From the NCBI GenBank assembly GCA_964519015.1, contig CAZFHZ010000006.1, positions 18 to 64,017 on the forward strand: a stretch of 64,000 nt of DNA, read 5' to 3'. The notes beneath the pieces were generated by a model. It saw nothing but the letters and a program-made list of their open reading frames with translations. It did not search any database and was not told the DNA's origin. A program made the position numbers and the translations under genes. Shown piece by piece: positions 15,366 to 48,108 of this stretch (positions within the stretch are counted from its first letter, which is position 1; each line of letters opens with the position of its first letter). The stretch comes from an uncultured Gemmatimonadota bacterium (GTDB lineage Bacteria; Blakebacterota; Blakebacteria; Blakebacterales; CAYUVJ01).

Positions 15366-16793
15366 TCATCGCCGCCGCTGGAGAGGCATGAGCAGGCAGT
15401 GAGGACCGCCGTTGCGCATCGAGAGGGCCTGACCAGGGAAGGTCAGTACCTCGATCCCGGCCGCCCGCAGCGCCCGGTTGGTGTGCCCGTTCTGCTCCAG
15501 GGCGATCACCCGTCCGGGGGCCAGCTGGACCACGTTCGCCCCCTGCCAGCGCAGTTCGTACATGGCCCGCTCGAGGGCATATTCTTCGAGCGGCAGCTCG
15601 CCGCGCTCCCCGCCCACGAAGACGATCCGGTAGCCGCGCTCGCGGAGAAGATCGACCAGCTTGAGCCCGAGCGGCTCCGCCTCGCCGCTCCCGGACCGGT
15701 AGCGGGTCACCCAGCCCACTTCGGGCATGACCGCAATGGTGCGCCGCAGGCTCTCGGGATCCCCCGCCCGCAGCTCGCCGTCGAGGGTCAGCAGCCGCTC
15801 CATCTGGCGGGCGAGACCGGCCAGCAGCGGGCCCATCGGATTGCACTCCGACCACTCCCGCTCCAGGAAGAAGGGGACGGCCAGGGCGGTGGATGTATCG
15901 AGCAGGTTACAGATGGAGTCCAGGTGCAGGAGCTGCCGGCCCAGCCCGTTGGGCCGGTCGGCCGGGGGCATGGCCACCCCGTAGACATCCATGCCCAGCC
16001 GGCGGGCCAGGAGCGAGGCGGCCTCGACGCTGGTGCGGTTGCCCGTGCCCAGCAACAGCTCCTGGGGCCCCAGCACGATCACGTCCCCGCCGTCGAGCGA
16101 GAGGTCCTCGCGCCCGGCGTCGAAGAGGACCGGGATCTCCCGCAATCCATCGGCGTGCTCGAACATCAGACGGGTGTAGTGCTTCTCCAGGACCCGGTTG
16201 CCGTTGCGGGAGTCGCCGATGATGACTCCCTTCGGGGTCATGGCCGCGAAGTCGCGTGACCAGTAGATCGAGGACATCCCCGGGAAGAGCGGGTCGAACA
16301 CCGAATCGGGACCAGCGTGGTAGAAACTCCCGTCGCTCAGGCCGAGCAGGTCCTCCCCGGTCAATTCGTCCAGCCGGGGGAGGATCGCCTCGGCGGTGGC
16401 CGGGAAGACGGTCCGGATCCAGTCGGCCAGCACCCCCTGCCGTCGGGCGTGCTCCAGCGCGCTCGTCATCAGCTCGGTGACGGTGAGGGTCCGTACCCCC
16501 GCACGCCGGAGCAGCCGCATCAGGGCGGCGTGCTCGGCCACCGTCCCGGGGGGCAGGCCGGTGCTGAAGACCGGGTGGCCGCTCCCCATCTCGGAGGACT
16601 TGAAGATCCACTCCCCCACCGGCATGACGATGGCCGCCTCGAGCCGGTCGGTGTCCCCCTGCACGTACGGGGCCACCGGGAGGAAGGGACCACTCCCGCC
16701 GGGCCCGCCACTCCCACCGCAGGCGGCGGCGCCCAGCAGCAGACCGATCACCACGGCCTGGACCGATATCACTCTGCGAGAAGATCCGACCAT
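15366..16793 (-). CDS. Exported lipoprotein of the guanidino-group-modifying enzyme superfamily (arginine deiminase/amidinotransferase-like)
   Basis: Signal peptide plus lipobox (LLLGAAACGG); C-terminal nucleophile motif NGGPHCLLMPL resembling ADI/DDAH/agmatine-deiminase Cys motifs; 475 aa. Confidence 0.6.
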   Translation of the reverse strand: MVGSSRRVISVQAVVIGLLLGAAACGGSGGPGGSGPFLPVAPYVQGDTDRLEAAIVMPVGEWIFKSSEMGSGHPVFSTGLPPGTVAEHAALMRLLRRAGVRTLTVTELMTSALEHARRQGVLADWIRTVFPATAEAILPRLDELTGEDLLGLSDGSFYHAGPDSVFDPLFPGMSSIYWSRDFAAMTPKGVIIGDSRNGNRVLEKHYTRLMFEHADGLREIPVLFDAGREDLSLDGGDVIVLGPQELLLGTGNRTSVEAASLLARRLGMDVYGVAMPPADRPNGLGRQLLHLDSICNLLDTSTALAVPFFLEREWSECNPMGPLLAGLARQMERLLTLDGELRAGDPESLRRTIAVMPEVGWVTRYRSGSGEAEPLGLKLVDLLRERGYRIVFVGGERGELPLEEYALERAMYELRWQGANVVQLAPGRVIALEQNGHTNRALRAAGIEVLTFPGQALSMRNGGPHCLLMPLQRRR

Positions 16794-28675: not shown

Positions 28676-29614
28676 TCAGCCGATCGGACCGAGGTTCCAG
28701 CCGAGGGCCAGCAGGTGACCGTCGCCGAGCAGTCCCCCCGGGCGCCAGACGTAACTGAGCCGCCACGGCCGGGTCTGCCAGGCCATCCCCACCGTCAGGT
28801 CGAAGGCGCCGGGACCGCCGGCCAGAGAGGCGTCCACTCCCCCCGTGTGGATCAGGCCCACGCGCAGGGCGGCCTGCGGATGGGGGCGCCATTCCCCCCC
28901 ACTCCCCCAGACCACGACCCGGTCTCCGGCCCGGTAGAGCAATTCGGAGGAAACTTCCCACCGTCCGGAGGCGGGTGACCAGGCGCCCCCCGCCCGCAGC
29001 CGGACCGGCAGGTGCGTCCCTTCCCCGGAGGCGAAGGGGGAGAGCACCACTCCGGCGTTGGAGAGCCCGCCGCGCAGTTCGAGACCGCCCAGCCGGTGCT
29101 TGACGGCCACCGCGCCGGTGAGGGCGAAGGCGCTGGCCTGGTCGATCCGGGAGACGGTCACGGTCGCCCCGGCGCCGATCCGGGTGCTCCCCTCCTCCAG
29201 CAGCGGGAGGGCCACCGAGAGGGCGGCATCACCCGGGGTGAAGCTGCCGCCGAATACCCCCAGCCGGTCGTCCAGGGCGGTTCGGCGCTGCTCCCCGTAG
29301 GTGAGGGTGCTGAGCAGCAGGGCCACCGGCCGGCTGCCCAGACGGAGACGGGCGGCCACCGCCGCCCACTCCAGTCCGAGGGCGTGGGTGCCGCCGGCCA
29401 TCTCCACCGCCGGACCGGGACCGGAAACCACGGAAGGGTCGACGGCCAGTCCCAGCAGGTCACCCGCCAGGGCCTGCCCCCCCAGGGCGCTCCCCCGGGC
29501 CAGCAGCATCAGGTCGTGGAGGGGGATCGAGTTCTGGGCTCCGACCGGGGTGACCACCAGGGTGGCCGCCAGCAGCCCGAGGAGCGCGAGCCGATGCCGG
29601 CCGCCGCGGCTCAC
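28676..29614 (-). CDS. Exported hypothetical protein, beta-strand-rich (possible outer-membrane barrel)
   Basis: GTG start overlapping the response-regulator stop; signal peptide RLALLGLLAATLVVTPVGAQ; Gly/Ala/Leu-rich alternating pattern; no recognised family. Confidence 0.5.
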   Translation of the reverse strand: MSRGGRHRLALLGLLAATLVVTPVGAQNSIPLHDLMLLARGSALGGQALAGDLLGLAVDPSVVSGPGPAVEMAGGTHALGLEWAAVAARLRLGSRPVALLLSTLTYGEQRRTALDDRLGVFGGSFTPGDAALSVALPLLEEGSTRIGAGATVTVSRIDQASAFALTGAVAVKHRLGGLELRGGLSNAGVVLSPFASGEGTHLPVRLRAGGAWSPASGRWEVSSELLYRAGDRVVVWGSGGEWRPHPQAALRVGLIHTGGVDASLAGGPGAFDLTVGMAWQTRPWRLSYVWRPGGLLGDGHLLALGWNLGPIG

Positions 29615-30972
29615 AACCCGTACTGCCGGATCTTGTAGCGTAGTGCCCGGGTGGAGAGACCGAGCAGCTCGGCGGCCCGGGTCCGGTTGCCGCCGACGTT
29701 TTCCAGCACGCGCTCGAGGATTCTCCGTTCGGTCCGCTCGATCTGTTCCTTCAGGGTCATCCGTTCGACTTCGCTCTCCCCACTCCCATCCTCCTCCCAG
29801 CCGCTCCGGCCCAGGATGTTCAGGTGTTCCTCCCCCAGCACATCCCCTTCGGCCAGCACCACCGCGTTCTCGATACAGTTCTCCAGTTCCCGTACGTTGC
29901 CCGGCCAGTCGTACTCCATCATGGCGTCGAGCGCACCCTGGGTGATCCGCTTCGGAGTCGCCGGGTTGCGTTCCGCCAGCCGGCGGATGAAGTGATCGAT
30001 CAGGGCGGGGATGTCCTGTTTGCGCATACGCAGGGGGGGGATGTGGACCGGCACCACGTTGAGCCGGTAGTAGAGGTCTTCGCGGAAGAGGCCGTTGTCC
30101 ACCATCTCCTTCAGATCCTGGTTGGTGGCCGCCACGATCCGCACATCCACCTCGATCCGGCGGTTGCTGCCGATCCGCTGGAAGGCATGCTCCTGCAGCA
30201 CCCGCAGCAGCTTCCCCTGGAGGTCGGGCCCGAGCAGGCTGATCTCGTCCAGGAAGATGGTGCCGCCGTCGGCCGCCTCGAACTTCCCCTTCTGCATCCG
30301 GTAGGCACCGGTGAAGGCCCCCTTCTCGTGTCCGAAGAGTTCCGACTCGATCAGGGTAGGGGGGATCGAGGCGCAGTTCACTTCGACCATCGGACTGCGG
30401 GAGCGGGGGCTGTTGTAATGGATGGCACGCGCGATCAGTTCCTTGCCGGTCCCCGATTCCCCCTGGATGATCACCGTGGCGTTGGTGGGGGCCACCTTCC
30501 TCACCTTGCGGAAGATGTCCTTCATCACCCCCGAGGCGCCGATGATGTTCTCGAAGGAGAAGCGCTCGGTGACGATGCCGCGCAGTTCCAGGTTCTCCAG
30601 GCGCAGGGCCCGCTGCTTGAGCGCCTTGTCGAGCACGACCAGCAGTTCTTCGATGTCGACCGGTTTGGTCAGGTAGTCGAAAACCCCGTCCTTCATCGCC
30701 TGGACGGCCGTCTCCACCGTTCCGAAAGCGGTCATGACGATGACCTGCGTCTCGGGCCACGATTCCCGAACCCGCCGGGAGAGTTCAAGCCCCGAGAGAC
30801 CGGGCATCTTGAGGTCGGTCAGCAGCACCTCCACATCACCGTGGTCGCCCATCAGGGCGAACGCCTCCTGCCCATCGGGCGCCGTCAGGACCGTATGCCC
30901 CTGCCGGGAGACGATGGTGTTCAGCCCCTGCAGCGTGTTGATGTCGTCTTCCGCGATCAGGATCTTGGCCAT
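29611..30972 (-). CDS. Sigma-54-dependent response regulator (NtrC family)
   Basis: Receiver domain (LLTDLKMPG), AAA+ sigma-54 domain with GESGTGKE and GAFTGA (EKGAFTGA), C-terminal Fis-type HTH. Confidence 0.9.
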   Translation of the reverse strand: MAKILIAEDDINTLQGLNTIVSRQGHTVLTAPDGQEAFALMGDHGDVEVLLTDLKMPGLSGLELSRRVRESWPETQVIVMTAFGTVETAVQAMKDGVFDYLTKPVDIEELLVVLDKALKQRALRLENLELRGIVTERFSFENIIGASGVMKDIFRKVRKVAPTNATVIIQGESGTGKELIARAIHYNSPRSRSPMVEVNCASIPPTLIESELFGHEKGAFTGAYRMQKGKFEAADGGTIFLDEISLLGPDLQGKLLRVLQEHAFQRIGSNRRIEVDVRIVAATNQDLKEMVDNGLFREDLYYRLNVVPVHIPPLRMRKQDIPALIDHFIRRLAERNPATPKRITQGALDAMMEYDWPGNVRELENCIENAVVLAEGDVLGEEHLNILGRSGWEEDGSGESEVERMTLKEQIERTERRILERVLENVGGNRTRAAELLGLSTRALRYKIRQYGL

Positions 30973-30984
30973 GACGCTCCCAGC

Positions 30985-32832
30985 TCACTCGGTAAGGTTG
31001 CCGCCCACCCCCGCGGGGATCGGCGGTTCCTTGGGCAGGGCCACGGTGACCGTGGTCCCCCGCCCCTTCTCACTGTCGATCGAGATCCTGCCCCCATGCT
31101 CCTCCACGATCCGCTGGGCGACGGAGAGACCGAGGCCCGAACCGGCGTCCCGGGTCGTGAAGTAGTAATCGAAAATCCGCGACAGGGTCTCCCGGTCGAT
31201 CCCCTCCCCCGTGTCGCTGACCTGCACGACCACCCCCCCGCCCCGTTCCTCCCAGCGTCCGGTATGGAGGGTGAGTTCCCCCCCCTGCGGCATTGCCTGG
31301 AGGGCGTTGAGGATCAGGTTGAGGAAGACCTGGGTGACCCGGTTCCGGTCGACCGCCACCGGAGCCAGTTCCGGGGCGAGGCGCAGGTGGACCCGCACCC
31401 CCTGCCGTTCCGCGGTTTCCCTCTGCAGATGGACGATGTCGCTCACCAGGGCGTTCACGTCGGTGGGCTCGGGGGAGAGCACGGGGGGACGGGAGATGGT
31501 CTGGAACTCCCGGACCAGGTTCTCGAGACGGCGGATCTCCCCCGAGATCACGTTCAGGTAGGCCTGCTCCTCCTCCCCGACCCGCTCCCTCAACAGATGC
31601 AGGTTGATCTGCATGGCGTTCAGCGGATTGCGGATCTCGTGGGCCACGACCGAGGAGAACTTGGCCAGGGTGTCGAGGTGTTCCACCCGGCGGAGCCGCT
31701 CCTGGATCCGGCTGAGCTGTTCGACCATCAGGTTGAACTCGGTCGCCAGGGTGCCCATCTCGTCCCGGCCCACCACCGGGATCTTCTGGGCCAGGTCGCC
31801 GCGGCTCAACCGGTTCGCCCCCTCCACCAGGGCCCCCATCGGGCGGATAAGCCGGCGGGTGTAGATGAGGGTGGAGATGAGGGCCAGGGCCATGCCGGCG
31901 CCCACCACCGCCAGGATCTGCCATCGCATGGTGTTGACCGTGGCCTCCAGCTCCGCGACCGGCCGGTGGATTACCAGCGCCCAGGGACTCTGCCCGGTCA
32001 GCTGGTTCTGGAGGGTCAGGGAGACGGCGCTCATCGGCTCCCCCCCGGGGGAGGCGACCTCCGAGCGTACCTGCCCCGGCCGATTGAGCAGTGCCTGGCG
32101 GACCGACTCCAGGCGGGACCAGTTCGTCCCGGCGTAGACGATCGACCGGTCAGGATGGGCGACCACCAGGCCCTGCTCGTTGGTCAGGAAGGCGCTGCCG
32201 CGCTCCCCCACCCGGATGTCGTCGATCACATCCCAGATCGCCTTGACGTCCACCTCCGCGATGAGCACCCCGATCAGGTCCCCCAGCGGGGTCCGGAGCG
32301 GAGCGGCGGTCAGCACGGTGGGGGGTTCGTCCTGCCGGGGAAGCCGGGGGAGGGAGACGGTCTTCTCGTCCGCCATCACCATCCCCCAGATCTCGACGCC
32401 GTCGGGGGGAAGGCTGTTCGGTCGGGTGAAATCAGTGGTGGCCACCAGCGCGGCGGTGGTGTCCGCCGCGTAGAGGTGACGGAAGGGGGTGGTCCCCTCA
32501 CTGCTCTTAGTCTGGTTGAGGAAGCGGTCGGAGAGGGTGGGATCGAGATAGAGCTGTTCAAGGGCGAGGGCGATGATCCGGAGCTGCTCCTCGATCCCGG
32601 CGGCGAACTCGTTGATCTGTCCCTTCGCCTGGTTGGCCAGCTCGGCGTTGTCCTTGTACTGGGTGTCGAGGATGGTCCGCCGCGCGATACTCACCAGCAG
32701 CAGTCCGAGGACGGCGATCGGCACCGTCACCAGCACCATGTGGTGGAGGAAGAGCCGGCGGAAGAGCCCCCCGACCAGGGGGAGGCGCTGCCCGAAGGGG
32801 TCGGCCCGGCGGCTCTTCATTTGCGCCGCCAT
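30985..32832 (-). CDS. Sensor histidine kinase with large periplasmic domain and HAMP
   Basis: Two TM segments flanking a ~280-aa periplasmic region; HisKA (SVVAHEIRNPLNAM) and HATPase_c (N, G1 DTGEGI, G2 GSGLGL) boxes. Confidence 0.85.
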   Translation of the reverse strand: MAAQMKSRRADPFGQRLPLVGGLFRRLFLHHMVLVTVPIAVLGLLLVSIARRTILDTQYKDNAELANQAKGQINEFAAGIEEQLRIIALALEQLYLDPTLSDRFLNQTKSSEGTTPFRHLYAADTTAALVATTDFTRPNSLPPDGVEIWGMVMADEKTVSLPRLPRQDEPPTVLTAAPLRTPLGDLIGVLIAEVDVKAIWDVIDDIRVGERGSAFLTNEQGLVVAHPDRSIVYAGTNWSRLESVRQALLNRPGQVRSEVASPGGEPMSAVSLTLQNQLTGQSPWALVIHRPVAELEATVNTMRWQILAVVGAGMALALISTLIYTRRLIRPMGALVEGANRLSRGDLAQKIPVVGRDEMGTLATEFNLMVEQLSRIQERLRRVEHLDTLAKFSSVVAHEIRNPLNAMQINLHLLRERVGEEEQAYLNVISGEIRRLENLVREFQTISRPPVLSPEPTDVNALVSDIVHLQRETAERQGVRVHLRLAPELAPVAVDRNRVTQVFLNLILNALQAMPQGGELTLHTGRWEERGGGVVVQVSDTGEGIDRETLSRIFDYYFTTRDAGSGLGLSVAQRIVEEHGGRISIDSEKGRGTTVTVALPKEPPIPAGVGGNLTE

Positions 32833-34496
32833 CGGGCCAGGGGTTCCAGGCGCAGCCTCATCTGCCCCACGCTCCGCAGTTCCACGACATCCCCATCCAC
32901 GACCCAGTACTGCTGCGTGGAGAAGTAGAGGGGTATCAGGGGAGCGTCTTCTTCGAACCGGTTGAGAGCTCCCTGCCAGTACAATTCGGGATTACTCCCC
33001 GCCCCCTGCATCACCGCGACCAGGTTCGAGTTGAAGTTGGGGCTGCGATAGCGCACGAAGTTGGTCCCCTCCGCGATCGCCGCCGCTCCGAACCAGTGCC
33101 GGAAGGCCTCCGGCGTGGGGGGCATCGTCATTTCATAGATGGCCAGGTCGTACTCCCCCGAACGCAGGCGACCCCGGAGCTCATCCGGGCTGACCGGGAT
33201 CGCCTCGATCAGGAAACCGAGCCGCTGCAGGTCGTTCTTGATGTTCCGGGCCATCTCCTCGTACATGGCGACGTGATCGGGGTAGTGGAGCCGGAGTTGG
33301 ACAGACCGGCCTGACGGATCGGTCAGTACGTCACCCGAGTGGCTGAATCGGAGCTGGGTCAGCAGGTTCATCGCCGGCCGGCGGCGCGGACGCCCCGACA
33401 CCCCTTCATCGGGGGGACGCGGCTGGATCGGCAGGTTGGCGATGGGGGAGAGTTCGCGAGGGACTCCCAGCCGGAGTCCTTCCCGGTCGATGGCCAGACG
33501 GATCGCGTAACGTACCTCGCTCTGGACCAGCAGCGGGGACTCGTTGTTGAAAGCCAGGTAGTAGAAGTGATCGGGCCTCGGGAAGTACCGGAAGTGCAGG
33601 TTGCGGCGGCTGGTCGACTGCGCCTGCAGCTCGGCGCTGGCCTGCCAGGTCAGCAGGCCGGCCACGTCCACCTCACCGGTGACCACGCCCTGGATGAGCT
33701 GCCGCTCGGTGGCATAGAAGTGGATGGTCACTTCCCGGATGGCGGGGCGTCCCTGGAAGTAGCGGTCGAAGGAACGGAGCGTGATGACCCGGTACCGACC
33801 TTCCGGACCGGGCTGAGGCTGCCCGATCTCGAAGGTGTAACCACCCAGACCGACCGGCTGCAGGAACGCCCGGGAGAGGGCCTCGCGCATCGTGGCGAGG
33901 TCCCCCCGGATGCTTCTGGCGGTCTCGGCGGGCAACGGCACCACCCGGGCCACCCGGTAGGGCTGCTCCCGCCGGCGCCGGGAATCCATGGTGAAGGTGA
34001 TCGAACCGTCCTGGTTGACCACCACCGTGCTGACCAGGCCGAAGGCGGGATCCACGTCGGGATCGCCCGCCAGGGCGAGCCGCCGGTAGAGATCGATCGT
34101 CTCCCGCACGTCCTGCGGATCGAGTTCGCTCTCGTTCTGGAAACGCACCCCCTCCCGGAGCTTGAGCGTCCAGCTCCCCCGGACCGTCTCCTCGGCGAAT
34201 GAGGTGACCAACTGCAGCACCGGTTCCTCCCCGGGAGTCGTGTTGTGGCCAATCAGGCCCGGTCCATAGACCTGGCGCATGATCCAGGCGTAGGCCCCGT
34301 CGGTCTGCAGGTCGGGGGGGAGGGGAAGAAAGTTGCCGGCAGCGACGAACCCGATGCGCAGCTCGCGCTGCTGGGGGGGGAGGGGGCGGGGAGCGGGGTA
34401 CACCTCGCCGCCGGGTGCGTCCGGTCGGGACCCACCCAGGACGACCAGGGCCGCCAGGGAGAACACGGCCCCGCACTTTCGACCGCTGGTCCTCAT
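32817..34496 (-). CDS. Periplasmic solute-binding protein, family 5 (peptide/nickel/opine type), orphan (no permease/ATPase adjacent)
   Basis: SBP_bac_5 length and architecture; signal peptide from MRTSGRKCGAVFSLAALVVLGGS; overlaps the histidine-kinase start by 16 nt. Confidence 0.65.
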   Translation of the reverse strand: MRTSGRKCGAVFSLAALVVLGGSRPDAPGGEVYPAPRPLPPQQRELRIGFVAAGNFLPLPPDLQTDGAYAWIMRQVYGPGLIGHNTTPGEEPVLQLVTSFAEETVRGSWTLKLREGVRFQNESELDPQDVRETIDLYRRLALAGDPDVDPAFGLVSTVVVNQDGSITFTMDSRRRREQPYRVARVVPLPAETARSIRGDLATMREALSRAFLQPVGLGGYTFEIGQPQPGPEGRYRVITLRSFDRYFQGRPAIREVTIHFYATERQLIQGVVTGEVDVAGLLTWQASAELQAQSTSRRNLHFRYFPRPDHFYYLAFNNESPLLVQSEVRYAIRLAIDREGLRLGVPRELSPIANLPIQPRPPDEGVSGRPRRRPAMNLLTQLRFSHSGDVLTDPSGRSVQLRLHYPDHVAMYEEMARNIKNDLQRLGFLIEAIPVSPDELRGRLRSGEYDLAIYEMTMPPTPEAFRHWFGAAAIAEGTNFVRYRSPNFNSNLVAVMQGAGSNPELYWQGALNRFEEDAPLIPLYFSTQQYWVVDGDVVELRSVGQMRLRLEPLARWRRK

Positions 34497-35341
34497 GGGT
34501 CGAGGGTGTCCTCCTGCCCCGGGACGTCCTCGCTCCGCCGCCGCCCGTGGGAGATCCACTCGGGGTCGGCGAACCGCTCCCGGAGTCCGCGGGCCCGCCG
34601 CTCCTCGGCGGGCTGCAGTCCCCCGGGCTCCAGCACCACGTCGAGCGAGCGGGCGAATCCCTCCGCGAACGGCGGGGCCAGCTCGGCGGCATCGATCGTG
34701 CGGCCCAGGAGCGCGGAGCAGTCTACCGTCGCCTGGCGCAGCGCCGCTTCTTCGGCCCGGGGATCGGGGCTCTCCAGGTACCAGGGGAGCCGCAGGTGCT
34801 CTCCTCCCAGCAGGATGGAACCGTGCTGCATCAACCAGCCTCCCCGCCGCCGCTGTGCGGAGCCTACCACTTTGCGGCCGCCGGCGACCAGTTCATACCG
34901 GCCGGCGGCGGTGAAACAGGGATTGCGGGTCTCCAGCCCGGCGGCCCTCGTCCGGCGCGTCTTCTCCAGTCCCACCTCGATCCCGACGGAGGCCAGACCG
35001 GCCTTCAGCCCCCCGGCCAGCCAGCGGTAGGCGGCCAGGGTACCCCCCGGAGGGGCCGGTGCGGTGACGCTGTAGGTGAGTTCTTCGGCGTGCAGGATGG
35101 CCCGGCCGCCGGTCGGTCGCCGGACGACCCCGTAACCGTCCCGCTCCAGCCGGGTCCAGTCCACCTTCGGCCCGCCGCGCTGGTTGGCGCCCAGCGAGAG
35201 GGTGTGGGGCCGCCAGGTATAGAGCCGAAGCGTCGGTCCGCCCCCCCTTTCGGCCTCGAGCAGGAGGGCTTCGTCCACCGCCATGTTCCAGGCCCCGTCG
35301 GCCGCTGGATCGAGCATCAGCCGCCAGAGAGGCCGGTTCAT
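34493..35341 (-). CDS. Lipoate-protein ligase family protein (BPL/LPL catalytic domain)
   Basis: BPL_LplA_LipB fold motifs (RRPTGGRAILH, GRKVVGSAQRR); 4-bp overlaps on both sides. Confidence 0.7.
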   Translation of the reverse strand: MNRPLWRLMLDPAADGAWNMAVDEALLLEAERGGGPTLRLYTWRPHTLSLGANQRGGPKVDWTRLERDGYGVVRRPTGGRAILHAEELTYSVTAPAPPGGTLAAYRWLAGGLKAGLASVGIEVGLEKTRRTRAAGLETRNPCFTAAGRYELVAGGRKVVGSAQRRRGGWLMQHGSILLGGEHLRLPWYLESPDPRAEEAALRQATVDCSALLGRTIDAAELAPPFAEGFARSLDVVLEPGGLQPAEERRARGLRERFADPEWISHGRRRSEDVPGQEDTLDP

Positions 35342-39536: not shown

Positions 39537-40544
39537 TCAGAGGCGGACGATCAGGGAACCCCAGGTGAAGCCGGCCCCGAAGGCGACCAGCAGGACGGTG
39601 CTTCCCTCCGGGGCGCGCCCCAGCTTTCGGGCCTCGTCGAGGGCGATCGGGATGGAGGCCGCCGAGGTGTTCCCATATTCCTGGACGTTGATGTACACCC
39701 GCTCGGGAGGGAGGGCCAGACGCTGGGCGGTCGCATCGATGATGCGGATGTTGGCCTGGTGGGGGATCAACAGGTCGATCCGGTCCGCTCCCAGCCCGGC
39801 CAGTTCCAGTGCCTTCTCGGCCGAGAAGGTCATGGCCCGGACCGCCGATTTGAAGACCTCGGAGCCTTCCATATAGAGGTAATGCTGACGGTTCTCCACC
39901 GTCTGGTGCGAGGCGGGCAGCCGCGAGCCGCCGGCCGGCAGTTTGAGCAGGCGTCCCAGGCTCCCGTCGGCCCCGACGTAGGCGGCCAGCACGCCGCGCT
40001 CCCCGTCTCCCGGTCCGTAGATGGCCGCCCCCGCCCCATCCCCGAAGAGCACACAGGTGCTCCGGTCCTGCCAGTCGGCAAACCGGGTCAGCGTCTCGGC
40101 GCCGATCACTCCCACGATCCGGAACTGCCCGGCGGCGATCAGGCTGTTGGCCAGCATGGAAGCGTAGATGAACCCCGCACAGGCCGCCGAGACGTCGAAG
40201 ACGGGGATCTTGGGCAGTCCCAGCCGGTCTTGCATCACGCAGGCGGTGCTGGGGAAGAGCATGTCGGGCGTGGCGGTGGCCACGATGACGGCGTCCAGGT
40301 CCGCCTGCCCCAGTCCGGCGTCGGCCAGGGCAGCCTTGAGGGCGGCGGCGGCCAGGTCGCTGGTCGCCTGGTCGTCGGCGATGATGTGGCGCCGCTTGAT
40401 ACCGGTGCGGGTGGTGATCCACTCGTCCGAGGTCTCCACCATGCGTTCCAGATCCTGGTTGGTGAGGATCTGCTCGGGCGCGTAGTGCCCCGTCCCCAGG
40501 ATCCGGCTGGCTCCCCGGGTCCGGTCAGTGAAGGTGGGCGGCAT
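39537..40544 (-). CDS. fabH: 3-oxoacyl-ACP synthase III
   Basis: KAS III: active-site Cys in AACAGFIYA; typical length of 335 aa. Confidence 0.95.
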   Translation of the reverse strand: MPPTFTDRTRGASRILGTGHYAPEQILTNQDLERMVETSDEWITTRTGIKRRHIIADDQATSDLAAAALKAALADAGLGQADLDAVIVATATPDMLFPSTACVMQDRLGLPKIPVFDVSAACAGFIYASMLANSLIAAGQFRIVGVIGAETLTRFADWQDRSTCVLFGDGAGAAIYGPGDGERGVLAAYVGADGSLGRLLKLPAGGSRLPASHQTVENRQHYLYMEGSEVFKSAVRAMTFSAEKALELAGLGADRIDLLIPHQANIRIIDATAQRLALPPERVYINVQEYGNTSAASIPIALDEARKLGRAPEGSTVLLVAFGAGFTWGSLIVRL

Positions 40545-41550
40545 GGATCGCTTCCAATCGGGCTTTGATGTGTCCGTTCAGGCCCTCCCGGACCATGCGC
40601 ACGGCGACCTGGATGGCATTGCGGATCGCCTTGGCAGAGGAGCCTCCGTGGCAGATGATGACGACCCCGTCGATCCCCAGCAGCGGGGCGCCGCCGAACT
40701 CCTCGTAGTCCAGGTCCTTCTTGAGTCGCTGGAAGACCGGTGCCATGAGGAGGGCGCCCACCCAAGCCAGGGGGCTGCGGGCCAGTCCCCGTTTGATCCC
40801 GGCGGTCATGAAGCTGACGACTCCCTCGGCGAACTTCAGCAGGATGTTGCCGGTGAAACCGTCGCAGACGGCGACGTTGACATCCCCTCTCAGGATATCG
40901 CGTCCCTGGATGTTGCCGACGAATTCGAGTCCCGACTCCATCAGGAGACGGTGCCCCTCCACGACGGTGTCGGTCCCTTTCCCGCTCTCCTCGCCGATGG
41001 AGACCAGTCCCACCCGGGGCCGCTCGATCCCGAAGACATACTCGGCATAGAGACTGCCCATGATACCGAACTCCACCAGGTTGCCGGGCCGGCAGTCGGG
41101 ATTCGCCCCCACATCCAGGAGCAGGGTCGTACCCGCTTCCGAGGGGAAGACGGTGGCGATGGCGGGACGGGACACACCGGCGAGCCGGCCGAGGGTGAAG
41201 AGGGCCGAACCCATCACCGCACCCGTATTGCCGGCCGAGACCACGGCCTGCACCTCGCCGGCCCGATGCCGGCGCATGGCGACCGCGATGGAGGAGTCCT
41301 TCTTGCGCCGCACGGCTGCGGCCGGTGCCTCATCCATGGCGATGGTCTCGGAGGCGTGCACGATCGAGATGGGGAGGCCGTGGATCATCCGATCGAAGTG
41401 CTCCCGCAGGAGCGGCTCATCGCCGACCAGCACGATCTCGTAGCGGCCCGCACCCGCCGCCGCGGCCTCCACGGCGCCGGCCACGATTCGCTCAGGGGCA
41501 TGGTCCCCCCCCATCGCATCGACCGCTATTCGGATCTTGCCGTCGGACAC
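40525..41550 (-). CDS. plsX: Phosphate acyltransferase PlsX
   Basis: IAVDAMGGDHAPE N-terminus typical of PlsX; 341 aa. Confidence 0.9.
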   Translation of the reverse strand: MSDGKIRIAVDAMGGDHAPERIVAGAVEAAAAGAGRYEIVLVGDEPLLREHFDRMIHGLPISIVHASETIAMDEAPAAAVRRKKDSSIAVAMRRHRAGEVQAVVSAGNTGAVMGSALFTLGRLAGVSRPAIATVFPSEAGTTLLLDVGANPDCRPGNLVEFGIMGSLYAEYVFGIERPRVGLVSIGEESGKGTDTVVEGHRLLMESGLEFVGNIQGRDILRGDVNVAVCDGFTGNILLKFAEGVVSFMTAGIKRGLARSPLAWVGALLMAPVFQRLKKDLDYEEFGGAPLLGIDGVVIICHGGSSAKAIRNAIQVAVRMVREGLNGHIKARLEAIHAAHLH

Positions 41551-41562
41551 GGGTCTTGAGGA

Positions 41563-41745
41563 TCAGACCTCGCGGGGGAAGATCACCTGCCGGCCGCGGT
41601 AGTACCCGCAGTTGGGGCAGGCGCGATGGGCCAGCTTGGGCTGGCCGCAGTGATCGCAGGTGGCCAGGGACGGCGCTGCGAGAGCGTGGTGACTGCGCCG
41701 CTTCTTCTTGCGCGTCAGCGACGTCTTCCTCTTGGGGACGGCCAT
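41563..41745 (-). CDS. rpmF: 50S ribosomal protein L32
   Basis: MAVPKRKTSLTRKKKRRSH...CxxCG...CxxCG; 60 aa from the internal Met. Confidence 0.9.
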   Translation of the reverse strand: MAVPKRKTSLTRKKKRRSHHALAAPSLATCDHCGQPKLAHRACPNCGYYRGRQVIFPREV

Positions 41746-41750
41746 GGGTC

Positions 41751-42287
41751 CTACTCCTTCGGGCTGTCGTCGAGCAGGGGACGCAGCACGGCCCAGCGGG
41801 GATCGTCCGCCCGGTGGCTGCATGAACAGCTCGACACGTTCAAGTTCTCGCCGCAGGTCGGACAGAGACCCCGGCAGTCCGGGCGGCAGAGCGGTTTGAT
41901 CGGCACGCTCAGGATCAGGGCTTCACGCACCGGAGCGTCGAAGGCGATCCAGTCCTCCCCGACAAAGGGAGCCGTCTCGTCTTCGTCTTCCATTCGGAGA
42001 CCGCCTGGTCCCGACCTCAGGACCAGGTCGAGTTCCGTCTCGATCCCGCTCTCAAAGGGCTCCAGGCAACGCCCGCATTCCTGCTGTGAAGTGGCCCGGA
42101 CCACCCCCTGCGCCCGGATCAGGGTCCCGGTGATGGTGAGGGCCAGTTCGAGTCCGACCTCCCCGTCGACCCGCAACAGATCCTCGGGCAGCTCCAGGGA
42201 GGCTCCGGTGGCGGTCAGGGTTCGTTCGTGACGGCCCTCCCCCAGGCCCCGCAGGTCGATCGAGAAAGGCCGGTCCAGCGCCGCCAT
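41751..42287 (-). CDS. yceD: YceD/DUF177-family protein (large-subunit rRNA accumulation protein)
   Basis: Conserved position upstream of rpmF-plsX; C-terminal CxxC...CxxC cluster (CRPDCRGLCPTCG). Confidence 0.8.
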   Translation of the reverse strand: MAALDRPFSIDLRGLGEGRHERTLTATGASLELPEDLLRVDGEVGLELALTITGTLIRAQGVVRATSQQECGRCLEPFESGIETELDLVLRSGPGGLRMEDEDETAPFVGEDWIAFDAPVREALILSVPIKPLCRPDCRGLCPTCGENLNVSSCSCSHRADDPRWAVLRPLLDDSPKE

Positions 42288-42359
42288 GGCTCCCCTCCGG
42301 ACGACAGAACCTCTCAATATAGGTGACCACCCGGCCCCGTCAACCGCACCATCCCGACG

Positions 42360-42791
42360 TCAGAGTCCCGCTCCCAACCCGGCCAGCTCCCGCTCGGTAA
42401 AGAAGAAGAGCACTTCCCGCTTCCCGTTCTCGACCGAATCGGACCCGTGGACCGTGTTCACCCCCACGTCCTGCCCGTAGAGGGCCCGGATGGTGCCTGC
42501 TTCCGCCTTGGTCGGGTCGGTGGCCCCGATCACCCGCCGCAGGTGGGCCACCGCGTCTTCGCGCTCCAGCGCGGTCGCCAGGATCGGTCCCCCGGTCATG
42601 TAGATGACCAGTTCCTCGAAGAAGGAACGGCCGGCGTGGACCGCGTAGAAGGCCTCGGCCTCAGTCCGGGTCAGCCGGAGCAGGCGCAGACCGCGGACCT
42701 TGAAACCTTCCTGTTCGATCCGGGTCAGGATGTCGCCGACGTGCCCGTTCGCCACCCCGTCGGGCTTGATGAGCATGCAGGTGAGTTCCAT
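42360..42791 (-). CDS. ndk: Nucleoside diphosphate kinase
   Basis: MELTCMLIKPDGV...NTVHGSDS active-site His; 143 aa. Confidence 0.95.
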   Translation of the reverse strand: MELTCMLIKPDGVANGHVGDILTRIEQEGFKVRGLRLLRLTRTEAEAFYAVHAGRSFFEELVIYMTGGPILATALEREDAVAHLRRVIGATDPTKAEAGTIRALYGQDVGVNTVHGSDSVENGKREVLFFFTERELAGLGAGL

Positions 42792-42805
42792 TCCCCTCCC
42801 CGATC

Positions 42806-42841
42806 CTAGTGTCCCGAGTCAGAATTTCGCATCAATTCGTT
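42806..42841 (-). promoter_or_regulatory. Conserved AT-rich ~36-nt intergenic element, copy 2 (between sucD and ndk)
   Basis: CTAGTGTCCCGAGTCAGAATTTCGCATCAATTCGTT on + strand; abuts the sucD stop and ends 14 nt upstream of the ndk ATG; contains GAATT-N7-AATTC inverted repeat. Confidence 0.5.
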
Positions 42842-43710
42842 TATGCCAGAGCCTGGGCGACGGTGCGTCCGATCTCGGCCGGGCTGATGCAGACATGCAC
42901 CCCGGCCTCCTTCAGGGCGGTCATCTTCTCGGCCGCGGTCCCGCCGCCGCCGCTGATGATGGCACCGGCATGCCCCATACGGCGTCCCGGCGGCGCGGTC
43001 TGCCCGGCGATAAAGGAGACGACCGGCTTGTCGAGATGCTCCGCGATCCAGGCGGCCGCCTCCTGCTCGGCGTTGCCGCCGATCTCGCCGATGAGGACCA
43101 CGGCGTCGGTCCCCCCATCCTCAGCGAAGAGCTCGAGCAGGTCGGTGAAGGTGGAACCGATGACCGGGTCCCCGCCGATTCCCACTGCGGTGGATTGCCC
43201 CAGTCCGACCGCTCCGAGCTGTCCGACCGCTTCGTAGGTGAGGGTCCCGCTGCGGCTCAGGATCCCCACCCGGCCGGGCCGGTGGATGAAGCCGGGCATG
43301 ATGCCGACCTTGGCCTCCCCCGGTGTGATCACACCGGGACAGTTGGGGCCAACCAGCCGCGCCCCCTTCTCCTGCACCACCTTCTTGGCCCGGGCCATGT
43401 CGAGGGCCGGGATCCCTTCGGTGATGCAGACGATGAGCGACAGGCCGGCCTCGGCCGCCTCCATGATGCCGTCGGCGGCGAAGGCCGGAGGTACGAAGAT
43501 CACGCTCGCATCGGCCCCGGTCTGCGCGACGGCCTCGCGGACGGTGTCGAAGACCGGCACGCCGAGGTGTTCCATCCCTCCCTTGCCGGGCGTGACCCCC
43601 CCTACGACCTTCGTGCCGTAGGCGATCATCTGCTCGGTGTGGAAGGTCCCCTCCCCCACCGTGATGCCCTGAACGAGGAGCCGGGTGTCCTTGTTGACCA
43701 GGAAGCTCAT
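42841..43710 (-). CDS. sucD: Succinyl-CoA synthetase alpha subunit
   Basis: CoA-binding and catalytic His region; [18 protein letters not shown]-type N-terminus. Confidence 0.95.
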
Positions 43711-43720
43711 GGCTGGGCTC

Positions 43721-44884
<1,164 letters not shown>

Positions 44885-44912
44885 GGCTGCGTCCCTTTCC
44901 GGGTTGTATGGG

Positions 44913-45479
44913 TCAGCGTCGGAAGAACCGCGGGCGTTCCTCTCCCCGTACGGGCTTCTCGAGGGCCGGTGTCTGGTTGGAGAGGGGCTGCGGCGGATCG
45001 GGTTCCGACATGAAGATCTCGTCCAGCGATTCAAGCGCGTTGAAGGAGTCCGCCTCCTTGATCAGGTCGAAACCGATCCGGTCCTGGAAGGCGATGACCT
45101 CCACCCGCTTCCCCAGGTTCTGGACCGCCCGGACCAGCCGGACGAAGTCGGAGTCCCCGGAGGCGAGCACGATGACGTCCAGGTTCTCCGCCTGGGTTAA
45201 CATGTCCACGGCCAGCTCCATGTCCATGTTGGCCTTCACCCGCCCGTCGGAGGAGCGGGTCCATTCCTTCTCGATCACCTTGAATCCGATGTCGCGCAGG
45301 GCGCTGATGAAGCCCTTCACCGGCTTCGGGTTGTCGGGGTCCACGGTGACGTAGGCGTTGCTGCGCAGCAGCTCGCGCCCCCCGGAGACGTACTCCTTCA
45401 GGACCCGGTAATTGATCGACGGGCCATCCTTGCGATAGAGATTGGCCGCGTCCACATAGAGCCCGGCTTTCAGTGGCAT
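44913..45479 (-). CDS. NYN-domain (LabA/DUF88-like) protein
   Basis: MPLKAGLYVDAANLY...VIVLASGDSDF NYN/LabA motifs; 3' end overlaps sucC start by ~30 nt. Confidence 0.7.
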   Translation of the reverse strand: MPLKAGLYVDAANLYRKDGPSINYRVLKEYVSGGRELLRSNAYVTVDPDNPKPVKGFISALRDIGFKVIEKEWTRSSDGRVKANMDMELAVDMLTQAENLDVIVLASGDSDFVRLVRAVQNLGKRVEVIAFQDRIGFDLIKEADSFNALESLDEIFMSEPDPPQPLSNQTPALEKPVRGEERPRFFRR

Positions 45480-45576
45480 TGTCTGGATCCTCCCGTCGGC
45501 CCCCTGATCGTGATAGCGAGGGCCCATACGGCCCGTCTCAACCGGCGGCCTGGGAGCCACCTCCTGGTCGACGGAC

Positions 45577-46527
45577 CTAGCCTTCGATAAGGGTGCCGCT
45601 GCGGCGGGCCAGGATCTCCGCCGCCTGGTCGAGCAGGCCAATGTAGACCCGTTCCCCGCCGTGTTCCAGGAAACGGATGGCCGCCTCGATCTTGGGCCCC
45701 ATGCTGCCGGCGGGGAAGTGCCCCTCCGACAGGTACCGGCGCGCCTCTTCCAGGGTCATCCGGGAGAGATCGCGCTGCTGCGGCGTGTCGTAGTACAGCG
45801 AGACGTGCGGCACGCTGGTCAGGATCAGGAACTCGCTCGCGCCGATACCGTTGGCCAGCACGGCCGAAGCGCGGTCTTTGTCGATCACCCCGTCCACCCC
45901 GGTGAGGTGACCCCGCTCGTCGCGCAGGACCGGCACCCCGCCGCCGCCGGCGGCGATCACCACCATCCCGGCTTCGAGCAGGCGGCGCACCACGTCCGCC
46001 TCCACCAGTTCGGTCACCCGGGGGGAGGCGACCACCCGACGCCACCCCCGGTTGCTGTCCTTCTTGACCGTCCAGCCGCGTTCCCCGGCCAGGGTGTGCG
46101 CTTCCTCCGCGGTGTAGAAGGGACCGACGAACTTGGTCGGGTCGTTGAGCGAGGGGTCGCCGGGGTCCACCACCATCTGGCTCAGGACCGTGGTGACGGT
46201 CCGGGCCGCCCCGCGGTCGATCAGCAGGCCGCGCAGGACCTGTTGGATCATGTAGCCCATTCCCCCCTGCAGATCGGCCACGATGATCGGCAAGGGGAGG
46301 AAGGGGACCTCGTGGCTGGTGTGCTCGACCCGGATCAGGTAGTTCCCGACCTGGGGACCGTTCCCGTGGGTGAGCACGACCCGGCGCCCGGCCGCGATCA
46401 GGTCGGCGATGGGCGCCAGGCTGGCCAGCGTGTTCTCGAACTGCTCGGGGATCGTCCCGGTGTCCTGCTCCCGGGTGATGGCGTTCCCCCCCAGGGCGAC
46501 CACCAGGATGCCGTCGCGGTCTCCCAT
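45577..46527 (-). CDS. arcC: Carbamate kinase (amino-acid-kinase family)
   Basis: VVALGGNA, VVLTHGNGPQVG, full-length 316 aa matching carbamate kinase; no arcA/arcB/arcD nearby. Confidence 0.8.
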   Translation of the reverse strand: MGDRDGILVVALGGNAITREQDTGTIPEQFENTLASLAPIADLIAAGRRVVLTHGNGPQVGNYLIRVEHTSHEVPFLPLPIIVADLQGGMGYMIQQVLRGLLIDRGAARTVTTVLSQMVVDPGDPSLNDPTKFVGPFYTAEEAHTLAGERGWTVKKDSNRGWRRVVASPRVTELVEADVVRRLLEAGMVVIAAGGGGVPVLRDERGHLTGVDGVIDKDRASAVLANGIGASEFLILTSVPHVSLYYDTPQQRDLSRMTLEEARRYLSEGHFPAGSMGPKIEAAIRFLEHGGERVYIGLLDQAAEILARRSGTLIEG

Positions 46528-46528
46528 C

Positions 46529-47899
46529 TCAGAGCCCCGGTACCCGCTTGAGGACCTCGGGCAGGTCGGGGGTGCCGACCTCCTGCAATTCGTAGGTCAC
46601 CCGAACGCTCGGCTGACCGATCTTGATCACCCGGCGCAGGTCGATCGGGGTACCGATGATGACCGCCTCGGCGTCGGAGGCGGCGATGGTCGCCTCCAGA
46701 TCCTTCATCTGCTCGTGACCGTAGCCCATGGCGGGCAGCAGGATGCCGATCTCCGGGTACTTCTCGAACGTCTCGGCGATGCTCCCCTGGGCGAAGGGGC
46801 GCGGGTCGACCAATTCGGAGGCGCCGTAGCGGTCGGCCGCCACCACCCCGGCGCCGTACTTCATGCCGCCGTGGGTGAGGGTCGGGCCGTCCTCGATCAC
46901 CAGCACCCGGCGGCCCTCGATCACCGCCGGGTCCTCCACATAGATCGGGGAGGCGGCGTCGATGATGACCGCCCGCGGATTGACCCTCTTGATGTTATTC
47001 CTCACCTTCTCGGTGTCGGCGTAGTCGGCCGTGGTCTCCTTGTTGATGATGACCACGTCGGCCATCTTCAGATTCGTCTCCCCCGGGTAGTAGGTCAGCT
47101 CGTGGCCGGGCCGGTGGGGATCGGCCACCACGATGTGCAGGTCGGGCTTGTAGAAGGGCGTGTCGTTGTTGCCGCCGTCCCAGAGGATGACGTCGGCCTC
47201 GCGCTGCGCCTCCTCCAGGATCCGGTGGTAGTCCACACCGGCGTAGACCACGATGCCGTTCACGATGTGGGGCTCGTACTCCTCCATCTCCTCGATCGTG
47301 CAGTCGTGGCGGGTGAGGTCTTCCAGCGACTCGAAACGCTGGACCGCCTGTTTGACCAGGTCGCCGTAGGGCATGGGGTGGCGGATCGCCACCACCTTCT
47401 TGCCGGCAGCCTGGAGCAGCTTGGCCACCCGGCGGGTGGTCTGGCTCTTGCCGCAACCGGTCCGGACCGCGCAGACGGCCACCACCGGGACCTTGGCCGG
47501 GAGCATCGTGCCGGCGGTGCCGAGCAGGACGAAGTCGGCCCCGGCGGCGTTGACGGTCGCAGCCAGGTGCCCGACGTATTCGTGGGAGATGTCGCTGTAG
47601 GAGAGGATGACCTGGTCGATCCGCTCCCGGGTGATGATCGCGGTGAGTTCCTCCTCGGGGAGGATGGGGATGCCCTCGGGGTAAAGGGGTCCGGCCAGCT
47701 GGGGCGGGTAGCGCCGCCCTTCAATGTCGGGGATCTGGGTGGCGGTGAAGGCCACTACTTCAGAGTCCTTATCGTCGCGGTAGACACAGTTGAAGTTGTG
47801 GAAATCCCGGCCGGCGGCTCCCAGGATGACCACACGCTTGCGCGCTGCCACGGGGATACCCTCCTGACGCTTCGCCTGGTTTCGGATGGGCGATGGCAC
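46529..47899 (-). CDS. P-loop protein of the cyclic 2,3-diphosphoglycerate synthetase (cDPGS) family
   Basis: 456 aa; P-loop VCAVRTGCGKSQTT; overall length and architecture recalled as cDPGS-like (from memory, not searched); stop adjoins the carbamate kinase start. Confidence 0.5.
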   Translation of the reverse strand: MPSPIRNQAKRQEGIPVAARKRVVILGAAGRDFHNFNCVYRDDKDSEVVAFTATQIPDIEGRRYPPQLAGPLYPEGIPILPEEELTAIITRERIDQVILSYSDISHEYVGHLAATVNAAGADFVLLGTAGTMLPAKVPVVAVCAVRTGCGKSQTTRRVAKLLQAAGKKVVAIRHPMPYGDLVKQAVQRFESLEDLTRHDCTIEEMEEYEPHIVNGIVVYAGVDYHRILEEAQREADVILWDGGNNDTPFYKPDLHIVVADPHRPGHELTYYPGETNLKMADVVIINKETTADYADTEKVRNNIKRVNPRAVIIDAASPIYVEDPAVIEGRRVLVIEDGPTLTHGGMKYGAGVVAADRYGASELVDPRPFAQGSIAETFEKYPEIGILLPAMGYGHEQMKDLEATIAASDAEAVIIGTPIDLRRVIKIGQPSVRVTYELQEVGTPDLPEVLKRVPGL

Positions 47900-48108
47900 A
47901 GTGGTGTTGCCCAGGGCGCTGATGCCGAAGGCGGGTTCCGATAGGGCAGGAAGTCGTCGCTTCCGCCCGCCGGTCTCACGAACCGGCGATGCTCCCTCTC
48001 CAGGTACCAGGGGGAGCTATAGATATCCCTAAACTAGGCTCCCGGGGGCGGCCGGTCAACCCCCCGGTCGGAATACCTAACTCGTTGCGTGATGACGGGA
48101 TGGCCCGC

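Follow-up and report, generated by a model that had tools for sequence, protein, structure and literature searches.

Described systems

In the arginine deiminase (ADI) pathway, encoded by arcABC(D), the hydrolytic enzyme ArcA carries out the first step, ornithine carbamoyltransferase (OTCase) cleaves citrulline by phosphorolysis, and the carbamate kinase ArcC then forms ATP. In Thermococcus kodakarensis the first step is taken by a different enzyme, ArcE (TK2200), which catalyses the reaction L-arginine + ADP + Pi <-> L-citrulline + NH3 + ATP (Michimori, Yokooji and Atomi, PNAS 2024, PMC11032458). The subject of the present analysis is a pair of adjacent genes on the minus strand of a 64-kb stretch of bacterial DNA, referred to below as the window. 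One gene encodes a P-loop protein and the other a carbamate kinase, and the two are probably the arcE and arcC genes of the arginine synthetase pathway, itself a variant ADI pathway. These names are used throughout.

ArcE came to light because its homologues occur in genomes where ArcC is present and ArcA is missing. Its authors report that ArcA and ArcE are mutually exclusive in most genomes, that arcE lies near arcB or arcC in some genomes, and that the family is widespread in bacteria, including Synechocystis, Caldithrix and Koribacter, and that its homologues are annotated as 'putative GTPase'. ArcE has low similarity to cyclic 2,3-diphosphoglycerate synthetase (cDPGS), which serves as the outgroup that roots the ArcE tree, and a structural resemblance to LpxK (4EHY). 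The reaction runs in both directions, its equilibrium (K about 10 at 80 °C) favouring deimination (PMC11032458 for all these points). A follow-up paper has appeared (Michimori et al. 2026, PMC13260591). In the literature searched, ArcE is treated only by the Atomi laboratory; nothing was found there on COG2403 or on a link between cDPGS and carbamate kinase, and sll0572 is mentioned only in proteomics, as a 'potential GTPase'.

The locus in the window shares the downstream chemistry of the arcABC(D) systems, and its kinase is of the ArcC type. It differs from them in that the first step would fall to a P-loop enzyme, with the energy conserved as ATP, and in that arcA, arcB and arcD are missing from the locus. 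It resembles the ArcE system in the genomic association with carbamate kinase and, in related loci, with OTCase. The three pathway genes of T. kodakarensis are dispersed (TK2200, TK0871 and TK2158), while arcE and arcC are coupled here and embedded, unlike those of T. kodakarensis, in a housekeeping cluster (greA...sucCD-ndk-plsX). The hosts differ as well, the present one being a Gemmatimonadota-like bacterium of about 69% GC that is presumably mesophilic.

The P-loop protein

The P-loop protein of the window can be assigned by its sequence to the ArcE (arginine synthetase) family. Its identity is 65% to P0356 of Pyrococcus furiosus and 66% to P0525 of T. peptonophilus, in both cases gapless over 432 aa, and 65-66% to P0359 of T. 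chitonophagus, gapless over 432 of the 440 residues of the window protein. In length, P-loop core and remote relatives (cDPGS and LpxK) the Thermococcales proteins are like the window protein, in agreement with the published description of ArcE.

The link to TK2200 itself rests on two independent bridges. In the P. furiosus genome P0356 adjoins hypC and hypD, and Supplementary Table 1 of PMC13260591 lists PF0547 as arcE, PF0548 as hypC and PF0549 as hypD; since these neighbours match, P0356 is identified with PF0547. The other bridge is provided by primers that anneal inside TK2200, which encode MAEKKKKRVLI at the 5' end and KNCEKLKK followed by a stop codon at the 3' end. The termini of P0525 are exactly those encoded by these primers. 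P0525 belongs to a 201-member cluster of Thermococcus and Palaeococcus proteins at 90% identity, among whose listed members T. kodakarensis was not seen. By this indirect route, the window protein appears to be a full-length orthologue of the characterised enzyme.

The AlphaFold2 (AF2) model of the window protein has a pLDDT of 94.1 and a pTM of 0.92. The Walker A motif, VRTGCGKS (residues 129-136), is located between a strand formed by residues 123-128 and a helix formed by residues 135-148, and G132, G134 and K135 of this motif are each at least 90% conserved among 40 diverse homologues. The family is large, with 3745 representatives at E <= 1e-3 in a library clustered at 50% identity, and many phyla of bacteria and archaea have homologues with 63-70% identity to the window protein. 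The public names of these homologues are 'GTPase', 'predicted GTPase' and 'cyclic 2,3-diphosphoglycerate synthase'. A homologue from the eukaryote Creolimax fragrantissima (P0155, EukProt) is 48% identical to the window protein, which agrees with the statement that a few eukaryotes carry arcE (PMC11032458).

The preliminary description of this DNA had placed the P-loop protein in the cDPGS family. This holds only at the superfamily level, where cDPGS is indeed the nearest solved relative. No family model of Pfam or NCBIfam reaches its cutoff with the window protein, and these scans put no family name to it. A single-sequence phmmer search finds the cDPGS of Methanothermus fervidus with an E value of 4e-4, over residues 233-371 only (~140 residues). 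A family profile built from 40 sequences is more sensitive, and matches the cDPGS entries 9SXB (3e-19) and 8ORU (4e-14) in the PDB. With the AF2 model as query, Foldseek ranks cDPGS 8ORK first, with an E value of 1e-16, an identity of 14-15% and a TM-score of 0.43-0.45, and next LpxK 4EHY (E 6e-9). The cDPGS of M. fervidus (8ORK/8ORU), together with 9SXB, is thus both the nearest solved fold and the nearest sequence family in the PDB, and it has a similar size (about 440-460 aa) and a P-loop core. The relationship is real but remote. An identity of 14-15% to cDPGS, against 65-66% to ArcE, led to the rejection of cDPGS as the identity of the protein. The substrates also differ, 2,3-bisphosphoglycerate for cDPGS and arginine or citrulline for ArcE, and the window protein is not expected, from its family, to act on phosphoglycerates. 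cDPGS has 2-phosphoglycerate kinase as its partner enzyme and methanogens that accumulate cyclic 2,3-diphosphoglycerate as hosts; the gene order of the window matches a Gemmatimonadota metagenome-assembled genome, and thus no methanogen. LpxK, the tetraacyldisaccharide 4'-kinase, is only 12-13% identical to the window protein; it is a membrane-associated lipid kinase with an unrelated function.

A GTPase of the CobW/HypB/UreG type was also considered and rejected, the match to PF02492 being below the cutoff (20.1 bits against 20.7) and covering residues 251-313 only. The hypB model TIGR00073 gives 19.8 bits against a cutoff of 121.2.

The carbamate kinase

The second protein of the pair has the amino-acid-kinase fold (PF00696, 96.2 bits). 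It scores 316.3 bits with the carbamate kinase model NF009007, above the cutoff of 266, and 347.7 bits with TIGR00746 (arcC), marginally below the cutoff of 358.25. Residues 8-313 align to residues 5-311 of the P. furiosus carbamate kinase 1E19 with an E value of 1.6e-88, and five more carbamate kinase structures match end to end or nearly so. To judge from these alignments it is an ordinary carbamate kinase, full-length as the preliminary description had it, and it keeps its textbook function. The kinase looks like an 'orphan' because arcE would take the place of arcA, and arcB would lie outside the window.

Conservation of the gene neighbourhood

The neighbourhood of arcE was surveyed in 80 genome loci, of which the 72 that extend 1.1 kb or more downstream were used for the counts of carbamate kinase and OTCase genes. 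A carbamate kinase gene is present somewhere in 35 of these 72 loci, and in 25 of them, from about a dozen phyla, it is directly downstream of arcE on the same strand. The pairing, whose conservation across genomes the preliminary description had left to such a survey, is far beyond chance. OTCase is encoded in 10/72 loci, and in two of them (L017 and L024) its gene lies between arcE and arcC. The linkage arcE-(arcB)-arcC is therefore widespread, and the OTCase genes interleaved with the pair in related loci tie it to citrulline and carbamoyl phosphate. The ArcE proteins from arcE-arcB-arcC loci are 67% identical to the window protein, a value that does not set them apart from those of other contexts, and so give no hint of a divergent subfamily.

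The genes arcE, arcC and sucC follow each other in at least 17 of the 80 loci. A longer order, arcE-arcC-sucC-sucD-ndk(-yceD-rpmF-plsX), which corresponds to 40525-47851 (minus strand) in the window, recurs in L004, L005, L011, L012, L020, L021, L030, L032, L033, L044, L047, L071, L083, L084 and others, whose records are titled as Marinimicrobia, KSB1, Ignavibacteriota, Fidelibacterota, Zixibacteria and Gemmatimonadota. It brings four phosphoryl-transfer enzymes that make or balance nucleoside triphosphates side by side, and may be either an inherited synteny or a functional module. In the two closest syntenic relatives, L083 and L084, one of them a Gemmatimonadota metagenome-assembled genome, the order greA-arcE-arcC-NYN-sucCD-ndk is identical to that of the window. 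The NYN gene, a predicted RNase, has the same position in these two relatives and is not found there in more distant phyla; it is a lineage-specific insertion in the cluster.

Search for arcA and arcB genes in the window

In the window, tblastn finds no OTCase (best E 0.95), and no amino-acid antiporter is present among the open reading frames (ORFs) scanned. Neither arcA nor arcB is adjacent to arcC. The earlier statement that ADI, OTCase and antiporter genes are missing nearby is borne out, with the addition of one divergent ORF of the ADI superfamily, of 475 aa, located 29 kb from arcE-arcC. This ORF scores 117 bits with PF02274 and 105.7 bits with the arcA model TIGR01078, the cutoff of which is 489.1. 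Both the HLD motif and the GGPHC motif at the C-terminus, with the catalytic Cys, are retained, while Asp replaces the Glu of the EGGD motif of ADI. The ORF adjoins a GGDEF gene and an AAA_14/DUF4143 gene. By these features its product would not be a canonical ArcA; it may instead be a deiminase that has diverged, or an enzyme of another kind that modifies guanidino groups.

Proposed pathway and alternatives

In the arginine synthetase pathway as proposed for this organism, ArcE would turn L-arginine, ADP and phosphate into citrulline, ammonia and ATP, in place of the hydrolytic ArcA. An OTCase (arcB or argF) encoded elsewhere in the genome would cleave citrulline with phosphate into ornithine and carbamoyl phosphate, and ArcC would transfer the phosphate of carbamoyl phosphate to ADP. 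The net yield would be two ATP per arginine instead of one. Both the enzymatic activity of the window protein and the catabolic direction of the pathway are presumed here, the former from the sequence relationship and the latter together with the location of arcB.

Several points weigh against this assignment. Because the 64 kb hold no arcB, completeness of the pathway is not demonstrable for this organism. The activity ascribed to the window protein depends on homology to one archaeal enzyme, to which it is connected through primer-encoded termini and the authors' locus table, and no assay of a bacterial ArcE was found in the literature searched. The reversibility of the reaction, with the equilibrium constant given above, would allow either direction in vivo. 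The ADI-like ORF clouds the reported complementarity of ArcA and ArcE. Finally, the genes lie in a housekeeping cluster (greA...sucCD-ndk-yceD-rpmF-plsX-fab), which is not an obvious catabolic operon.

The enzymes might work in the opposite direction. In an anabolic pathway, the kinase would make carbamoyl phosphate from carbamate and ATP, OTCase would make citrulline, and ArcE would fix free ammonia onto citrulline to give arginine, replacing or supplementing carbamoyl phosphate synthetase and argininosuccinate synthetase/lyase. The ArcE reaction can be run both ways in vitro, the enzyme sustains growth on citrulline in vivo, its authors suggest a biosynthetic role in organisms without argG and argH (PMC11032458), and a housekeeping setting that has neither transporter nor arcB would suit such a role. 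However, the same authors found the carbamate kinase of T. kodakarensis unable to supply enough carbamoyl phosphate for growth, and the occurrence of ArcE to be unrelated to that of argG and argH; the equilibrium lies on the side of deimination (PMC11032458), and the window gives no sign that the genome lacks argG/argH or carAB. The anabolic direction is therefore considered unlikely. A further reading, for Gemmatimonadota and the other FCB-type phyla, is also rather improbable: arcE-arcC would there be no inducible catabolic operon, and would form, with sucCD and ndk but no arcB, a conserved housekeeping module. In such a module the two enzymes might serve constitutive nucleotide and energy homeostasis, or combine anabolic, one-step, ammonia-dependent synthesis of arginine with kinase-made carbamoyl phosphate, or ArcE might use a substrate other than free L-arginine; the 5' leader described below might regulate the module.

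The two remaining explanations depart from the ArcE assignment altogether. An ordinary ADI pathway, with the ADI-like ORF as ArcA and the P-loop protein as a GTPase or metallochaperone of the CobW/HypB/UreG type, would draw on the PF02274 score and retained motifs of that ORF, on the weak CobW and HypB matches, and on the many database records that use such names. The score of the ORF with the arcA model is far below the cutoff, its place is beside GGDEF and AAA genes at a distance of 29 kb, the CobW match is partial and below its own cutoff, and the linkage that is conserved is that of carbamate kinase with the P-loop gene. Together these features make an ordinary ADI pathway very improbable. 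The preliminary description had suggested a new two-step phosphoryl transfer on small phospho-carboxylic acids, in which a cDPGS-like cyclisation or ligation is coupled to the kinase. The tight coupling of the genes, and the position of cDPGS as the nearest structure and nearest PDB family, are in keeping with this suggestion, to which almost no credence can be given in view of the identities to cDPGS and to the L-arginine-using ArcE family, the OTCase genes interleaved with the pair, and the typical carbamate kinase. The two enzymes would instead be those of steps 1 and 3 of a published pathway, with OTCase between them, and the proposed phospho-carboxylic substrate of the P-loop protein is given up in favour of L-arginine. 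The suspicion of a role outside the textbooks was fair for the route, in which ArcE would replace ArcA, and mistaken for the kinase.

Gene layout and upstream region

The features of the locus are collected in Table 1. The gene order is greA upstream of arcE and, after arcC, NYN, sucC, sucD, ndk, yceD, rpmF, plsX and fab genes; the flanks are those given in the preliminary description. The longest reading frame of arcE, 46529..47899, begins with GTG and encodes the 456 aa reported there. The GTG at 47851 is the likelier start, since a Shine-Dalgarno sequence precedes it, and gives 440 aa, which is also the length of the public protein P0001, 100% identical to the window protein. The Shine-Dalgarno stretch is kept in L083 and L084. 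At the junction of the two genes, the sequence of which is ctcTGAgATGgga, the stop codon of arcE and the start codon of arcC are separated by a single nucleotide, within the 1-2 nt reported earlier, and the spacing is the same in L083. The genes are translationally coupled, and co-transcription with NYN-sucCD-ndk is presumed. Codon-position GC supports both as real genes (GC3 0.91 for arcE and 0.93 for arcC). The antisense ORFs 45661..46551 and 46370..47944 on the plus strand were rejected as high-GC artefacts by the codon-position GC screen, which kept the minus-strand genes.

Table 1. Positions in the window of the arcE-arcC locus and of other features discussed
Feature	Position	Strand	Remarks
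candidate promoter TTGACC-N17-TAGTTT	48031..48059	-	sigma-70-like; putative, read from sequence
conserved 60-nt block CCGGCGGGCGGAAGCGACGACTTCCTGCC...	47914..47973	-	presumed arcE 5' leader
Shine-Dalgarno AGGAGG of arcE	47860..47865	-	read from sequence; 8 nt 5' of GTG
arcE	46529..47851	-	440 aa; arginine synthetase (ATP-forming arginine deiminase) homologue
arcE stop/arcC start junction TGAgATG	46525..46531	-	1-nt spacer, read from sequence
arcC	45577..46527	-	316 aa; carbamate kinase
NYN-domain gene	44913..45479	-	between arcC and sucC; PF01936 102.7 bits
sucC	43721-44884	-	downstream neighbour; Pfam matches of homologous neighbours
sucD	42841-43710	-	downstream neighbour; Pfam matches of homologous neighbours
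ndk	42360-42791	-	downstream neighbour; Pfam matches of homologous neighbours
solute-binding protein, histidine kinase and response regulator genes	29611-34559	-	in a row
ADI-superfamily ORF	15366..16793	-	475 aa

In the spacer between greA and arcE, the candidate promoter has an identical -35 element in L083, where the -10 element differs at one base (TAATTT); neither element aligns in L084. A stricter scan with promoter and terminator consensus sequences found nothing between greA and arcE and did not pick up this candidate. The 60-nt block is identical at 57/60 positions in the metagenome contig L087 and at 60/60 in L109, and L083 has it in nearly identical form; the spacer on either side is diverged. 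The block is absent from the more distant L084. Rfam gives no family in the whole window and nothing credible in this spacer, and the folding z-score of the leader, -1.66, is not unusual. Metagenome scans for the leader motif gave 0 matches and then 43, of which two are true relatives and the rest correspond to the estimated chance level. The variants of the block are too few for covariation analysis.

Elsewhere in the window, a family-5 solute-binding protein of the peptide/oligopeptide type, a dCache-HAMP histidine kinase and a sigma-54-dependent response regulator are encoded in a row. They may form a unit for peptide sensing or uptake, which would fit amino-acid catabolism.

Implications for the ArcE family

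ArcE and its pathway, their wide distribution in bacteria and the clustering with arcB and arcC have been in print since 2024. The translational coupling of arcE and arcC, the arcE-arcC-sucC-sucD-ndk synteny in FCB-type phyla and the 60-nt leader conserved among close relatives may be new. The ArcE orthologues of Thermococcus, Pyrococcus and Palaeococcus (P0356, P0359, P0366, P0397, P0409-P0416 and P0521-P0534) are named 'cyclic 2,3-diphosphoglycerate synthase' or 'GTPase' in RefSeq and UniRef, despite the demonstration of arginine synthetase activity for the T. kodakarensis enzyme, which looks like a systematic mis-annotation, and the copies of Pfam and NCBIfam used here have no model for the family. 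The ArcE assignment would correct the annotation of the window protein and of hundreds of homologues. If the ADI-like protein is a deiminase, the genome would be among the rare carriers of both ArcA and ArcE types. Recognition of arcE explains the presence of a carbamate kinase without arcA, and the coupled arcE-arcC pair would be a sensible choice for assaying a bacterial ArcE for the first time. The prediction is that substrate-level phosphorylation can yield two ATP per arginine in this Gemmatimonadota-like organism and in many bacteria of the FCB group.

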